NCBI GenBank assembly: GCA_965215505.1
Contig: OZ244065.1
Span: forward strand, 2,208,001 to 2,272,000
Origin: Capsulimonadaceae bacterium
Lineage (GTDB): Bacteria > Armatimonadota > Armatimonadia > Armatimonadales > Capsulimonadaceae
Length of the DNA stretch: 64,000 nucleotides
Reading direction: 5' to 3'
Below the pieces are notes generated by a model. The model worked only from the letters and a program-made list of their open reading frames with translations, did not search any database and had not been told where the DNA came from. Made by a program: the position numbers and the translations under genes. Of this stretch, positions 10,343 to 13,641 are shown one piece after another. How positions within the stretch are numbered: the first letter of the stretch is position 1; every line of letters starts with the position of its first letter.

Positions 10343-11413
10343 TCAGCGCCCCCGCGACCGACCGGCTTGGAGTGTGACGAGGCCCGTCCCATCGGGGTTC
10401 TCCACCAGCGCGGCCTCGACGGGCAGGAACTGCGGGACGACCCACAGCACGGTCCGCAGGTGTTCTGTCACCTGAGAGGTCGTCCAGCGGCTCTCGCCCG
10501 CCGTCAGCGCCATCGGCAGGACAAGCTGGTCCGCCAGATGCTCCTCGCAGGCCGCGCCCGTCTCCCACCACGCTTTGAAGGCGTGGCAGACCTCCTCGGC
10601 GACGGCTTCCATGCGCTTGCCGCGCTCGCCGATGGCGGAGAAACCCGCCAACCCGCCTTCGCACTCGGCGACCAGAAGAACGGCAGCCCCCGCCCCGACC
10701 GAGGGCGCTTCGCGCATCTCGGTGGATAGCTCCACCGGCAGGCGACCCACTTCCTGACGCACGGCGGCGACGCCTCTCTCAGCGACGGTCGGAGGCAGCC
10801 CTGATGTCACGACGAGGGCCGTCACGGCGCGCAATCCGCCCCGCTCCGTCAACGTGATAGGCGAAATCGCGGCGTTCCCCGCGACCTCGGCACTCACCGC
10901 CCCTCCCCCTTTAGGAAAGAACCCCGCCTTCGGCGACAGCAGAGAAGCGGCCAGGCCGTGCCGCGCCAGTGTCGGCAGATAGACGCGCTCCAGGTAGTCC
11001 GCCGTCGGCGCGTGCGAGACGTGCGTCCCGCCGGTGACGGTGACGCGGGAGGCGGCAGGGGCAAAGGCGAGCGGCATCAGGACGGTTTGCAGGACGAGGG
11101 CCGTCGCCCCCGCCGTGCCGATGGCGAAGTGGTAGACGCCGTGCGTCGGCGGTGCCTGTGGGGCGAAGCGGAGGCGGACCGACCCGATCTCCGCGCCTTC
11201 CAGCGAGGCCGCACACAGCTCGGCTGCGGCCTTGACCGAGGCAAGATGCTGGGGCTGGAGGCCGGGCCGGGCGCGGCCCGCGCGTATCCGCACGATCTCG
11301 ACGGGCCGCCCCGTCAGGGCCGATAGGGACAGGCTCGTCCGCAAAATCTGCCCGCCGCCCTCCCCGTGCGACCCGTCAATGGTGACGCTGGATTGTGTGT
11401 CTAAGTTCTTCAT
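10343..11413 (-). CDS. rtcA: RNA 3'-terminal phosphate cyclase
   Basis: IDGSHGEGGGQILRT, RAGRARPGLQPQH, GFFPKGGG and HLADQL (catalytic His). Confidence 0.96.
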   Translation of the reverse strand: MKNLDTQSSVTIDGSHGEGGGQILRTSLSLSALTGRPVEIVRIRAGRARPGLQPQHLASVKAAAELCAASLEGAEIGSVRLRFAPQAPPTHGVYHFAIGTAGATALVLQTVLMPLAFAPAASRVTVTGGTHVSHAPTADYLERVYLPTLARHGLAASLLSPKAGFFPKGGGAVSAEVAGNAAISPITLTERGGLRAVTALVVTSGLPPTVAERGVAAVRQEVGRLPVELSTEMREAPSVGAGAAVLLVAECEGGLAGFSAIGERGKRMEAVAEEVCHAFKAWWETGAACEEHLADQLVLPMALTAGESRWTTSQVTEHLRTVLWVVPQFLPVEAALVENPDGTGLVTLQAGRSRGR

Positions 11414-11561: not shown

Positions 11562-11637
11562 TGGTGCTCCCGACAGGATTTGAACCTGTGGCCTCGACCG
11601 TCGCAGGATCGCGTTCTATCCGCTGAACTACGAGAGC
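11562..11637 (-). tRNA. tRNA-Arg(GCG)
   Basis: GCTCTCG acceptor; anticodon arm CGATC-CTGCGAC-GGTCG; T arm ACAGG-TTCAAAT-CCTGT; CCA encoded. Confidence 0.92.
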
Positions 11638-11647
11638 AATTCGAAAA

Positions 11648-11718
11648 CTCCTCGACCCGGATTCGAACCAGGGCGAACGCATTAACAGTGCGTGATGCTG
11701 CCGCTACATCATCGAGGA
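11648..11718 (-). tRNA. tRNA-Asn(GTT)
   Basis: TCCTCGA/TCGAGGA acceptor; G73; anticodon arm ACGCA-CTGTTAA-TGCGT; T loop TTCGAAT. Confidence 0.9.
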
Positions 11719-11763
11719 TCACGGCCCAGCGGTCTGTCATGACCGCCGGACCAAGTTAGAGAA

Positions 11764-11836
11764 TCGTGGCGGTGGGAATTGAACCCACGATTTACAGGGT
11801 ATGAGCCTGCCGCCTTACCAGCTTGGCTTCGCCACA
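11764..11836 (-). tRNA. tRNA-Met(CAT), atypical
   Basis: Anticodon arm GCAGG-CTCATAC-CCTGT; T arm GTGGG-TTCAATT-CCCAC; U1:G72 wobble; A at position 8. Confidence 0.85.
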
Positions 11837-11889
11837 ATGCCGTCTCTCGCTGCCCCTACCAGTCAGGGGGCAGGGGCAGAGTCCGGACG

Positions 11890-12123
11890 TCAGATGTCTG
11901 ACGCCCGGCGCGTGTGCTTGTAGTCCTGGCTGCGCTCGCGGACATATTCCACGGGCTGCCGCGCCCCGGCCCCGGTGACCTCCCAGCCGTCCTGGGTGAT
12001 TCCGTCCTCCGTCAGCCGCAGGAACCGCCCGACGACGGCGTGCTTCTCCGGTATCCAGGCCATCTGGTGCGCTGGCCCCCGCCGGAGCCGGCACTGGACG
12101 TAGTACTGTGTGTAGCCGGACAT
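11890..12123 (-). CDS. 77-aa hypothetical protein inside the tRNA array
   Basis: Strong RBS AAGGAG before ATG 12123; MSGYTQYYVQCRLRRG...WIPEKHAVVG...DGWEV...RRASDI. Confidence 0.8.
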   Translation of the reverse strand: MSGYTQYYVQCRLRRGPAHQMAWIPEKHAVVGRFLRLTEDGITQDGWEVTGAGARQPVEYVRERSQDYKHTRRASDI

Positions 12124-12149
12124 GATGTTTCTCCTTCCCTTTCTGACTG

Positions 12150-12782
12150 TTACACGGCGGCCCGCGCGACCAGCGCCTGGCTGATCGCGGCGGGTACTTC
12201 GGCGTAACCGGCGACGCTCATCGAGAACGACGCCCGCCCCTGCGTCAGCGAGCGCAGGTCGGTCGTGTAGCCGAACGTCTCGGCGACCGGGACGGTGGCC
12301 CGCACGACGGCCGTGCCGTCGGCCAATGCGCTCTGGCCCAGAAGATGCCCGCGACGCCGGGCGATGTCCCCCAGCACCGGCCCGACGAAGCCGCCCGGCG
12401 TCAGCACTTCGACCAGGCCGATCGGCTCGATGAGGATCATCGGCGCGTGCTTGCAGGCATCCAGGAACGCGAGACGCCCCGCCTCGGCGAAGGCGTAGTC
12501 GGTCGAGTCCACCGCGTGCCAGCTCCCGTCCACGACCGCCACCCGCACGTCCACCACGGGGTAGCCCGCCAGGACGCCGCCGGCCATCGCACTCCTGACG
12601 CCCTTCGCGATGCTCGGGAGGAAGATGCGGGGGATGACGCCGCCCACGAGGCCGCTGACGAACTCGAACCCCGCCCCCGCCTCCAGGGCTTCCAGCATAA
12701 GGACGCAGTACGCCTTCTGGCCTTTGCCGCCGTTCTGCTTGTCCACGCGGCCTTCGCCGCGATATCTGGTCTGGTCGGTCAT
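12150..12782 (-). CDS. Stand-alone EF-G domain IV-V protein (no GTPase domain)
   Basis: KQNGGKGQ, GVLAGYPVVDVRV, DGSWHAVDST, LIEPI, GDIARRRG and FGYTTDLRSLTQGRASFSM match the EF-G C-terminal domains; own AAGGAG RBS; 210 aa. Confidence 0.9.
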   Translation of the reverse strand: MTDQTRYRGEGRVDKQNGGKGQKAYCVLMLEALEAGAGFEFVSGLVGGVIPRIFLPSIAKGVRSAMAGGVLAGYPVVDVRVAVVDGSWHAVDSTDYAFAEAGRLAFLDACKHAPMILIEPIGLVEVLTPGGFVGPVLGDIARRRGHLLGQSALADGTAVVRATVPVAETFGYTTDLRSLTQGRASFSMSVAGYAEVPAAISQALVARAAV

Positions 12783-12815
12783 GGTCTTTCTCCTTCGTTC
12801 CCGGCGTTCGAGTGA

Positions 12816-12888
12816 AGCGGAAGGCGGGGCTTGAACCCGCAGCCTTCATGGTGGCACCGTGACGCTCCGCCGATTGAGCTACTTCCGC
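12816..12888 (-). tRNA. tRNA-Gly(GCC), atypical
   Basis: GCGGAAG/CTTCCGC acceptor; U73; anticodon arm TCACG-GTGCCAC-CATGA with one C:A mismatch and G32. Confidence 0.85.
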
Positions 12889-12925
12889 ATTGACTTAGTT
12901 CCGCGTGTCCTGCTCGTGGCAGGGA

Positions 12926-13000
12926 TGGAGATGGTCGGAATCGAACCGACGGCCTCCTGTTCTTCAGACAGGCGCTGCTACCGGACTGAGCTACATCTCC
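12926..13000 (-). tRNA. tRNA-Phe(GAA)
   Basis: GGAGATG/CATCTCC acceptor; anticodon arm CCTGT-CTGAAGA-ACAGG; T arm GTCGG-TTCGATT-CCGAC; irregular D stem. Confidence 0.88.
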
Positions 13001-13017
13001 ACAATCAACAGCCGAGA

Positions 13018-13053
13018 CAAACAAAACGGCCTCTCGCGTAGTGCGGGAGGCCG
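13018..13053 (-). terminator. Attenuator terminator C (upstream of tRNA-Phe)
   Basis: CGGCCTCCCGC-ACTAC-GCGAGAGGCCG followed by TTTTGTTTG on the minus strand. Confidence 0.85.
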
Positions 13054-13082
13054 GAGGGTTCATGGTGTGGCAGGATCGCTTG

Positions 13083-13247
13083 CTACAGCAAACGCTCCCT
13101 CCCCCATAAACCCTTCGCCCCCGCCATAAAGCGGGCACCGCCCATCGCCTGGACCTGACCTAACCCCGGCGTGACACGGCTCAGAATCAGGCGGCTTCCC
13201 GCCTGGTTCGCTTGAGCCGGTATGAAATTATTATTTGTCGCTATCAT
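13083..13247 (-). CDS. Putative leader peptide C (54 aa)
   Basis: MIATNNNFIPAQANQAGSRLILSRVTPGLGQVQAMGGARFMAGAKGLWGRERLL; starts 11 nt after an extended -10; 3' codons contain the antiterminator strand 13104-13124. Confidence 0.65.
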   Translation of the reverse strand: MIATNNNFIPAQANQAGSRLILSRVTPGLGQVQAMGGARFMAGAKGLWGRERLL

Positions 13248-13258
13248 TGCTGTTTAGG

Positions 13259-13267
13259 AGTATACCA
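13259..13267 (-). promoter_or_regulatory. Extended -10 promoter (TGgTATACT) for the Phe-Gly-...-rtcA unit
   Basis: TGGTATACT on the minus strand with AT-rich upstream DNA. Confidence 0.65.
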
Positions 13268-13337
13268 CGGTTTCATGGCAAATAACCATAAAGTTTACGG
13301 AGCTATCAATTTTATTTTCATGGCCGGTTGATCTGGA

Positions 13338-13409
13338 TGGGGACGCAGGGAGTTGAACCCTGACTTCGCGCTTAAAAGGCGCACACACTGACCGTTATGT
13401 TACATCCCC
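13338..13409 (-). tRNA. tRNA-Lys(TTT)
   Basis: GGGGATG/CGTCCCC acceptor; anticodon arm TGCGC-CTTTTAA-GCGCG; T arm CAGGG-TTCAACT-CCCTG. Confidence 0.88.
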
Positions 13410-13425: not shown

Positions 13426-13464
13426 ACAAAAAGATCGGCCCCGCGCTGTCTGCACGGGACCGAT
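13426..13464 (-). terminator. Attenuator terminator B (upstream of tRNA-Lys)
   Basis: ATCGGTCCCGTGC-AGACA-GCGCGGGGCCGAT followed by CTTTTTGT. Confidence 0.85.
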
Positions 13465-13488
13465 TGTGTCTGTCTCTTTTCCTCTTCC

Positions 13489-13641
13489 CTAAAGCGGTGG
13501 GAGGAGCCGCCGATGAGGCGGCGACACGATCGGTCCCAGTATGAAGTTTTTGAGAAAGCCTGAAGCCGGGCGTAGCAGAGCCACGGCCAGGCGGTGACCC
13601 GGCATCATCTTTGTATTGCGTTTCGTCGTCAGGCTGGTCAT
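13489..13641 (-). CDS. Putative leader peptide B (50 aa)
   Basis: MTSLTTKRNTKMMPGHRLAVALLRPASGFLKNFILGPIVSPPHRRLLPPL; contains antiterminator strand 13523-13537; ends just before terminator B. Confidence 0.6.
   Translation of the reverse strand: MTSLTTKRNTKMMPGHRLAVALLRPASGFLKNFILGPIVSPPHRRLLPPL

Follow-up and report, generated by a model that had tools for sequence, protein, structure and literature searches.

Supernumerary tRNA genes clustered in so-called L-arrays are spread horizontally among bacteria, show a patchy distribution and may enclose protein-coding genes (Santamaria-Gomez et al. 2021, PMC8421152). According to the same study, these arrays are induced when translation is impaired and contribute to survival, are linked to or co-regulated with rtcB and other genes of translation and RNA processing, and reach 43 genes per array, with the Planctomycetes among the phyla that possess them. 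Also of relevance is elongation factor G (EF-G, encoded by fusA), whose domain V contacts the L11 region and H89, whereas the contacts to the sarcin-ricin loop (SRL), L7/L12, h5/h15 and S12 are made by domains G, II and III (PMC5207388). Here we describe a 210-amino acid (aa) protein, hereafter the EF-G tail, that resembles domains IV and V of EF-G and is encoded within a tRNA array of Capsulimonadaceae bacterium (phylum Armatimonadota). The window, i.e., the whole stretch of DNA analyzed, comprises 64,000 nucleotides of contig OZ244065.1 (positions 2,208,001 to 2,272,000). The original prediction, made from the sequence of this window, had placed the gene between tRNA genes; the tRNA neighbors are indeed there, but the description understates the context, a supernumerary array of six tRNA genes. 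Nor did it mention the 77-aa neighbor, the Rtc gene, the predicted leader attenuator or the cassette-like occurrence of the gene, which make up the decisive context.

A stand-alone EF-G domain IV-V protein

The gene and its ribosome-binding site are located as follows.

12782..12150, minus strand: stand-alone EF-G domain IV-V protein, 210 aa (open reading frame; Pfam EFG_IV and EFG_C only)
12795..12790, minus strand: Shine-Dalgarno sequence AAGGAG of the EF-G tail, 7 nt 5' of the ATG (from sequence)

The open reading frame (ORF) is intact, with the ATG start codon at 12782..12780 and the stop codon at 12152..12150, and follows the end of tRNA-Gly(GCC) at 12816 by 33 nt, in agreement with the initial description of a separately initiated frame behind this tRNA gene. 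The expected Pfam architecture was also found: the protein matches EFG_IV (3e-29, profile positions 16-120 of 121) and EFG_C (2e-24), and no other family. Since the EFG_IV match begins at profile position 16, the first ~15 positions, corresponding to about one strand, are absent from domain IV. The EF-G models of NCBIfam align to the protein only over model residues ~487-700, scoring 235 bits against cut-offs of 513-890; its scores also lie below the EF-G equivalog cut-offs (best 235 bits versus 583; 209 versus 659 for TIGR00484). The EF-G features present are domain IV with its tip loops I and II and domain V, whereas the G domain, domain II and domain III are all absent by both Pfam and tblastn. 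When the genome's own fusA frame (722 aa) was compared with the whole window by tblastn, residues 512-713 alone matched, at 12755..12156 with 50.5% identity, and residues 1-511 had no match better than E = 0.04; therefore, the window contains no G-domain remnant, as had been predicted. Over its length, the EF-G tail is 51% identical to the fusA product of the same genome.

The truncation point coincides with a domain boundary, as would be expected for one half of a split EF-G working with a separate G-II-III half. However, the only frames with an EFG_III domain (PF14492) in the complete genome of 6.18 Mb are those of 722, 611 and 648 aa, a gene restricted to G-II-III is absent from this genome, and the housekeeping fusA is intact, so that the split-gene explanation is close to refuted.

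The AlphaFold2 model of the EF-G tail, built with the family alignment as input, has a pLDDT (predicted local distance difference test) of 84.9 and superposes on domains IV-V of Thermus thermophilus EF-G with a TMq of 0.77-0.80 (0.77 for 2efg and 2bv3) and 46% identity. In optical-tweezers experiments, domains IV/V of EF-G fold as a stable unit without G/II (PMC6925980). The EF-G tail is best explained as a functional protein consisting of domain IV minus its first strand and domain V.

A single family of short forms under purifying selection

A protein search limited to similar lengths returned, among the best 120 of 1051 matches, 33 proteins of 178-221 aa with 58-93% identity and EFG_IV plus EFG_C only; contig-end pieces of fusA at ~50% identity formed the background and ranked below this short family. 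Among these, P0001 is 93% identical to the window protein. Metagenomes were scanned with a degenerate DNA pattern for the YRGEG motif, which yielded 18 loci, namely 11 short forms, two of which run off the end of their contig, one full-length EF-G of 706 aa and six chance matches. In all short forms, the motif YRGEG(R/K)..(K/R)Q.GG.G lies 3-9 residues after the start. The window protein displays the traits of the family, including a length within ~204-221 aa, a start just before YRGEG, the invariant residues C26 and C110, and placement in its own clade. A family profile compared with 1.84 billion cluster representatives gave 380 bits for the family's own representative and at most 268 bits for all others; the family is compact and rare. 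As a side observation, the 706-aa metagenomic EF-G (L107 5829-6437) carries two marks of the short family, YRGEG and a Cys after loop I, and forms a long branch among the full-length sequences in the tree.

In a FastTree phylogeny of 145 rows, the 40 short forms constitute a single clade (SH-like support 100, stem 0.33), which neighbors the fusA sequences of the window's own order and phylum; two "short" database entries, P0036 and P0095, group instead with full-length fusA and represent ordinary fragments. An IQ-TREE analysis under a mixture model, from which 13 near-duplicate short rows, 2 fragments and 65 full-length rows were omitted, recovered one split separating 27 short from 38 full-length rows (SH-aLRT 100). 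The most plausible evolutionary scenario is that the short forms arose once, by truncation of EF-G. With ~40 truncated copies of equal length in one clade, the protein is not the lone fragment that the original prediction had named as a potential pitfall.

Among six close copies of the EF-G tail, dN/dS is 0.14-0.34 (Nei-Gojobori; 14 informative pairs, dS 0.35-0.53), versus 0.007-0.106 for the same region of housekeeping fusA (28 pairs, eight genomes of the genus). These values point to purifying selection on the EF-G tail, about four-fold more relaxed than on fusA. The relaxation is one of several observations that would suit a neutral fragment of a duplicated fusA, decaying while it hitch-hikes in the array; others are the frequent loss of the gene, the frameshifted member P0054 and the possibly decayed pieces in genome G015 (see below). 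Such decay is nevertheless refuted as a general account and highly improbable here, given the dN/dS values at this degree of synonymous divergence, the intact frame with the same start across ~40 clusters down to 51% identity, and the gene's own ribosome-binding site. Moreover, identity of only 51% to the fusA product of its own genome indicates that the EF-G tail is old, yet its frame is still open.

Conserved and family-specific residues

Domain IV of EF-G resembles the anticodon arm of a tRNA. Its tip loops, spanning residues 507-513 (loop I) and 579-589 (loop II) in E. coli numbering, include Q507, G509, G510, H583 and D586, which touch the anticodon loop and the mRNA backbone; mutation of these residues leads to frameshifting, i.e., they keep the reading frame (PMC7749637). 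Their equivalents are all present in the EF-G tail, as Q16, G18, G19, H89 and D92. Alignment of 40 short and 103 full-length sequences revealed 50 positions that are identical and at least 90% conserved, including G18, G19 and G21 in loop I and G86, S87, H89, D92 and S93 in loop II; E. coli counterparts by alignment are G509, G510, G512, H583, D586 and S587, with Q16 corresponding to Q507. The loop sequences quoted in the original prediction, KQNGGKGQ (residues 15-22) and GSWHAVDST (residues 86-94), read as given there. The family also retains the domain V motifs RRG and P.AE.FGY...LRS.TQGRA.

Apart from these shared positions, the short forms have invariants of their own, Y7, R8, G9, C26, E29, C110, P114, M115, R142, Q150, D155, T157 and T169. 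The last of these stands in place of a Met that 99% of the compared fusA sequences have, and the equivalent of Tyr514 is a Lys (K23) in the window's clade.

Likeness to an anticodon arm could also be exploited away from the ribosome, with the EF-G tail serving as a decoy or sponge that anticodon nucleases, or other toxins recognizing tRNA or EF-G domain IV, cannot cleave, and thereby complementing the spare tRNAs. Three observations are consistent with this explanation: the RNA-repair genes in the array context, the proposal that array tRNAs serve as sponges for toxin RNases (PMC8421152), and an ORF with weak, sub-cut-off similarity to PIN (18.4 bits) adjoining the relative in L112. However, conservation falls precisely on the positions by which EF-G works on the ribosome (PMC7749637), it is just as strong in domain V, for which there is no tRNA-like role, and no toxin gene is consistently linked to the EF-G tail in the loci examined. 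We consider a decoy function improbable; the decoy for EF-G-targeting toxins named in the original prediction gained no specific support.

The supernumerary tRNA array

On the minus strand, the genes are arranged in the order leader, tRNA-Lys(UUU), 336-nt spacer, tRNA-Phe(GAA), tRNA-Gly(GCC), EF-G tail, 77-aa ORF, tRNA-Met, tRNA-Asn, tRNA-Arg(GCG) and RtcA, with the following tRNA genes and terminal gene.

13338..13409, minus strand: array tRNA-Lys(UUU), first of the array (ARAGORN, Rfam; 44/76 identical to the housekeeping copy)
12923..13001, minus strand: array tRNA-Phe(GAA) (ARAGORN, Rfam; 47/80 identical to the housekeeping copy)
12816..12888, minus strand: array tRNA-Gly(GCC) (ARAGORN, Rfam 54.8 bits; 47/74 aligned positions identical to the second Gly(GCC) gene)
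11763..11837, minus strand: array tRNA-Met(CAU) (ARAGORN, Rfam)
11648..11718, minus strand: array tRNA-Asn(GUU) (ARAGORN, Rfam)
11562..11637, minus strand: array tRNA-Arg(GCG) (ARAGORN, Rfam)
10343..11413, minus strand: RtcA, RNA 3'-terminal phosphate cyclase, syntenic end of the array (Pfam RTC 1.4e-76 and RTC_insert)

The complete genome (6.18 Mb) has 63 tRNA genes, and each of the six array tRNAs has a same-anticodon gene elsewhere in it, at 57-69% identity. Because the isoacceptor copies are so dissimilar, the array appears to be an extra set of foreign appearance. At the gathering level, Rfam recognizes only tRNAs in the window; searches at E up to 1 added below-threshold noise only (miRNA-like matches in the spacer and antisense Plastid-ycf2 matches over two tRNA genes).

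Similar arrangements were found in relatives. In G012, an EF-G tail of 83% identity lies in an array of 12-13 tRNAs, and arrays of this size with an EF-G tail also occur at the metagenome loci L111, L113, L116 and L122. G061, a member of a different genus, has an EF-G tail of 60% identity among 9 tRNAs, and the gene for its homologue of the 77-aa protein is followed by RtcB. An Rtc gene follows the array in the window genome (G000), G012, L122 (RtcA in all three) and G061 (RtcB instead). Of the loci belonging to the clades of the window and of G061, seven out of seven sit in tRNA arrays. For the 207- and 212-aa subgroups, the array context is drawn from G061 and four EF-G-tail/77-aa cluster pairs that share equally long longest contigs (P0009/P0129, P0014/P0137, P0054/P0130 and P0018/P0154). 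The contig of L109 ends 203 bp upstream of the EF-G tail gene. With six tRNAs compared to 12-13 in G012 and L122, the window array looks like a shortened version.

The distribution of the arrays is patchy: with the 77-aa gene as a marker, they are present in 14 of the 24 genus genomes, and both their location and their contents vary. The EF-G tail is best explained as an optional cargo of horizontally spread supernumerary tRNA arrays of the L-array type.

Several other observations concern arrays and relatives. A sister subgroup of EF-G tails (L108, L112/L120, L117, L121 and L123), at ~51% identity, starts with MNENTYRGEG; in L112, a tRNA-Asp gene, the weak PIN-like ORF and a 104-aa ORF precede the EF-G tail. 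The window's genome has a second array-like remnant (G000:C1:5944500-5948400) with extra tRNA-Tyr and tRNA-Ile(UAU) genes and an array-type RtcB in two separate frames, broken or interrupted, adjoined by a 336-aa ORF. The array of G016, without an EF-G tail, contains an ARAGORN-predicted tRNA-Phe with the unusual anticodon AAA (L139 1879-1952). Genes neighboring the array in the window carry PSCyt1/PSCyt2/PSD1 and DUF1501 domains, which by themselves give no more than a hint of a Planctomycetes-like lineage.

Rarity and cassette behaviour

The EF-G tail was found in two of the 24 genomes of the genus, three of the 71 genomes of the order and two members of a 401-genome sample of the phylum. 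Its gene is flanked by a short direct repeat.

12787..12796: 10-bp direct repeat, upstream copy, TTTCTCCTTC on the plus strand and GAAGGAGAAA on the coding strand (sequence scan)
12128..12137: 10-bp direct repeat, downstream copy, which doubles as the ribosome-binding site of the 77-aa ORF (sequence scan)

These copies, 659 bp apart, are the only two matches of the repeat in the 64-kb window (0.06 expected), and both ribosome-binding sites, of the EF-G tail and of the 77-aa ORF, are included in them. Contigs of relatives without the EF-G tail were matched to the window at 85% likeness. In two runs of one study, such contigs join 12125 to 12785 and omit 659 bases, which corresponds to a single-repeat form; one contig from another study joins 12136 to 12816. 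Two runs labelled RNA-Seq proved to be probably DNA when compared with the window. The flanking repeat and the contigs that skip 659 bases suggest that the EF-G tail comes and goes as a unit.

A phage origin of the EF-G tail was considered and rejected, as viral_contigs contain no relative detectable by protein or by the family motif pattern. A phage collection gave 25 matches to the EF-G tail at no more than 45% identity, and the one examined, from a 484-kb phage, is a full-length EF-G of 681 aa. A scan of genome_contigs with the family alignment gave no family member among the matches listed, all 80 loci being of the fusA type with 43-52% identity.

A predicted leader switch and a conserved spacer unit

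The array is preceded by an attenuator-like region, and a second conserved non-tRNA unit lies between its first two tRNA genes.

13434..13641, minus strand: attenuator-like leader region (terminator scan; motifs and alternative pairing in 6/6 arrays)
13018..13282, minus strand: spacer unit, Lys-to-Phe (conserved in 6/6 arrays aligned)

Upstream of tRNA-Lys, a leader ORF at 13641..13489 encodes 50 aa that contain ...NFILGPIVSPPH..., and a strong terminator hairpin (13464..13434), accompanied by a T tract, begins 24 nt after it. The 5' arm of the terminator is ATCGGTCCC (13464..13456), and the 3' arm, GGGGCCGAT (13442..13434), is followed by the T tract. Pairing with this 5' arm is possible for the leader codons GGGACCGAT (13537..13529); more broadly, complementarity to the arm and the bases preceding it extends over the G-P-I-V-S codons (GGGACCGAT.GTGTC), and the corresponding peptide motif ..NFIxGP(I/M)VS.. 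is conserved across arrays.

We compared the leaders of the window, L004, L105, L111, L113 and L116. Both alternative folds are possible in all six arrays, including that of the 60%-identity relative G061. With the 3' arm removed, the antiterminator folds in 6/6; with the 3' arm present, the minimum-energy fold is the antiterminator in three arrays and the terminator in three. The wobble base of the Ile/Met codon covaries with its partner, forming G-C in two arrays, U-A in one and U-G in one, and is mismatched in two. During translation of the leader, the ribosome would mask the antiterminator arm and thus permit termination, whereas poor translation of the leader would result in read-through. 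Judging from these sequence features, the leader ORF and terminator may form a translation-sensing, attenuator-like switch of the tRNA array, and the predicted switch is at most suggestive of stress induction.

All arrays share a conserved spacer of ~330 nt that separates tRNA-Lys/His from tRNA-Phe and has no Rfam match. In the window, the unit within it comprises a promoter-like box, TTTGCC...TGGTATACT (13282..13259), with an invariant TGGTATA resembling an extended -10 element, a 54-aa ORF or structured RNA (13247..13083) and an intrinsic-terminator hairpin with T tract (13052..13018). The ORF remains open across in-frame indels, with 54-59 aa in the arrays, and 16 of the 84 predicted spacer RNA pairs show compensatory change. 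The segment containing the EF-G tail gene follows immediately downstream of this unit.

The 77-aa array protein

The small ORF that follows the EF-G tail is a conserved component of the arrays.

11890..12123, minus strand: 77-aa protein of no known family (ORF inside a longer frame; conserved tRNA-array cargo)

It has 40 homologues, mostly of 77 aa, with dN/dS of 0.11-0.31 and a nearly invariant C-terminus, ...RERSQDYKHTRRASDI. No match was obtained in Pfam or NCBIfam, and PHROG gave one weak match to a family of unknown function (phrog_25356, 4.6e-6). The AlphaFold2 model (pLDDT 76) has no fold match in the PDB below E = 0.2. The gene is a commoner cargo than the EF-G tail and is present without it in arrays such as those of G016 and G014. 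Sixteen phage records contain homologues, 15 of them from Caulobacter jumbo phages; in phage CcrColossus, the homologue gp098 sits within the phage tRNA array. The protein, located at 11890-12123 in the window and at 5986-6207 in L140, is common to bacterial and Caulobacter jumbo-phage tRNA arrays.

The conserved neighborhood of the 77-aa gene, along with the family invariants away from the tip loops (Y7, R8, G9, C26, C110, P114, M115 and T169), raises the possibility that the EF-G tail modulates another protein, such as a factor docking on EF-G IV-V in the manner of FusB-type proteins, the 77-aa protein itself or an Rtc enzyme, which it would titrate or recruit. This is marginally more improbable in our judgement than the decoy function. 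Twelve of the 14 genus genomes with the 77-aa protein have no EF-G tail, and the same holds for phage arrays; five tRNA genes separate the two protein genes in G061; and no partner was identified. Prediction of a complex between the EF-G tail and the 77-aa protein gave a score of 0.00 in both of two runs, performed without controls.

Proposed function

The EF-G tail is putatively a GTP-independent ligand of the ribosomal A site, belonging to a module that responds to translational stress or RNA damage, and we regard the chances of this reading as about even. The original prediction had likewise suggested a GTP-independent ribosome binder, which fits the retained tip residues and the stress and repair context; binding itself is a prediction. 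We infer that the EF-G tail would be transcribed together with the spare tRNAs, the 77-aa protein and the Rtc RNA-repair enzyme when failing translation of the leader ORF opens the leader-terminator switch ahead of the array. Without any GTPase, the protein would then dock where domains IV-V of EF-G dock, so that loops I and II of domain IV would extend into the decoding site of the 30S subunit and lie next to the codon and the anticodon loop, and domain V would sit on the L11/H89 region. Its targets would be ribosomes whose A site is vacant since tRNAs are depleted or cut, and its protective role would be to maintain the reading frame, or to close off the decoding center, while the spare tRNAs and RtcA/RtcB restore the RNA pool. 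A shield of the SRL, as had also been proposed, is unlikely in that form because the SRL is contacted by the G domain of EF-G (PMC5207388), which the EF-G tail lacks.

Several observations weigh against the A-site ligand. The absence of domains G, II and III, with their ribosomal contacts, implies that isolated IV-V may bind ribosomes only weakly. The family-specific changes (C26, C110, T169 and K23) could mean a non-ribosomal partner. Selection is laxer than on the same fusA region, by the four-fold difference given above. The sister subgroup at 51% identity (L108, L112 = L120 and L123) lies outside arrays. Furthermore, the gene is dispensable and easily lost, as seen from its presence in two of 24 genus genomes, from the arrays of G011 and G031, which keep RtcA and lack the EF-G tail, and from the single-repeat contigs. 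G015 has only two adjacent fragments (G015:C1:1134235-1134622), in different frames and covering query residues 81-151 and 155-209, which may represent a degraded EF-G tail gene; their identity of 48-56% is no higher than that of genus fusA, and no full-length fusA match is listed for this 76%-complete genome.

A more far-reaching version, which we put forward tentatively and consider unlikely, assigns the EF-G tail to a mobile "first-aid kit" for translation that senses its own cue, in which it would be the protein component and plug the vacant A site. An untranslated leader would favor the antiterminator and turn the array on, spare tRNAs and Rtc enzymes would replace or mend cut RNAs, and domains IV-V would hold the frame and shield the decoding center from A-site ribotoxins. 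If so, this would be the first known trans-acting, nucleotide-free EF-G module. The literature searched contains no description of a stand-alone EF-G IV-V protein, and the words "truncated", "partial" and "fragment" do not occur in the accessible text of a survey of translational GTPases (PMC4342817).

Domain IV of EF-G has been viewed solely as the lever of a GTPase motor; a conserved protein with domains IV-V alone suggests that the tip has a use of its own, on the ribosome or close to it. Its location in an array, beside RNA repair and a predicted translation-sensing switch, offers a concrete, testable handle on the purpose of the enigmatic tRNA arrays and on how bacteria, and perhaps jumbo phages, cope with damage to tRNA or rRNA. 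Small and well-folding (210 aa, pLDDT 85), the EF-G tail is suited to ribosome-binding and cryo-EM work.

Comparison with known systems

The closest relative of the EF-G tail is EF-G itself, which it resembles in sequence (51%), fold (TMq 0.77-0.80), the tips of loops I and II and the domain V motifs. EF-G possesses domains G, G', II and III and the first strand of domain IV, all of which the EF-G tail lacks; EF-G is universal, whereas the EF-G tail is accessory, rare, array-borne and marked by family-specific invariants. EF-G2-type paralogues derive from EF-G, have little or no GTPase activity and presumably function on ribosomes outside the usual GTPase cycle. Those of Bacteroides thetaiotaomicron (8dmf) and Mycobacterium smegmatis (9k0z) are among the fold matches of the EF-G tail, at ranks 49 and 41, but EF-G2 keeps five domains and ~700 aa, whereas the EF-G tail has lost three and forms a separate clade in the tree. 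The ribosomal protection proteins Tet(M)/Tet(O) are likewise related to EF-G and employ their domain IV at the decoding site. They are full-length GTPases, and the EF-G tail, with weak NCBIfam matches (53 bits against a cut-off of 775) and no G domain, does not belong to them.

In gene organization, the E. coli operon thrU-tyrU-glyT-thrT-tufB provides an example of a translation-factor gene directly behind tRNA genes, presumably released by tRNA processing. The EF-G tail likewise lies behind tRNA genes, but the factor of the tufB operon is a complete essential GTPase in a housekeeping operon. The window array, a cluster of tRNA genes redundant with the housekeeping set, belongs by this criterion to the L-arrays. 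In the main text of the L-array study, as far as it is accessible, EF-G occurs three times, only as a down-regulated host gene, and no EF-G fragment appears (PMC8421152). The arrays described there have up to 43 genes and are controlled by promoter repeats, whereas the window array has 6 tRNAs, its relatives in G012 and L122 have 12-13, and its control would depend on the predicted leader-ORF/terminator switch.

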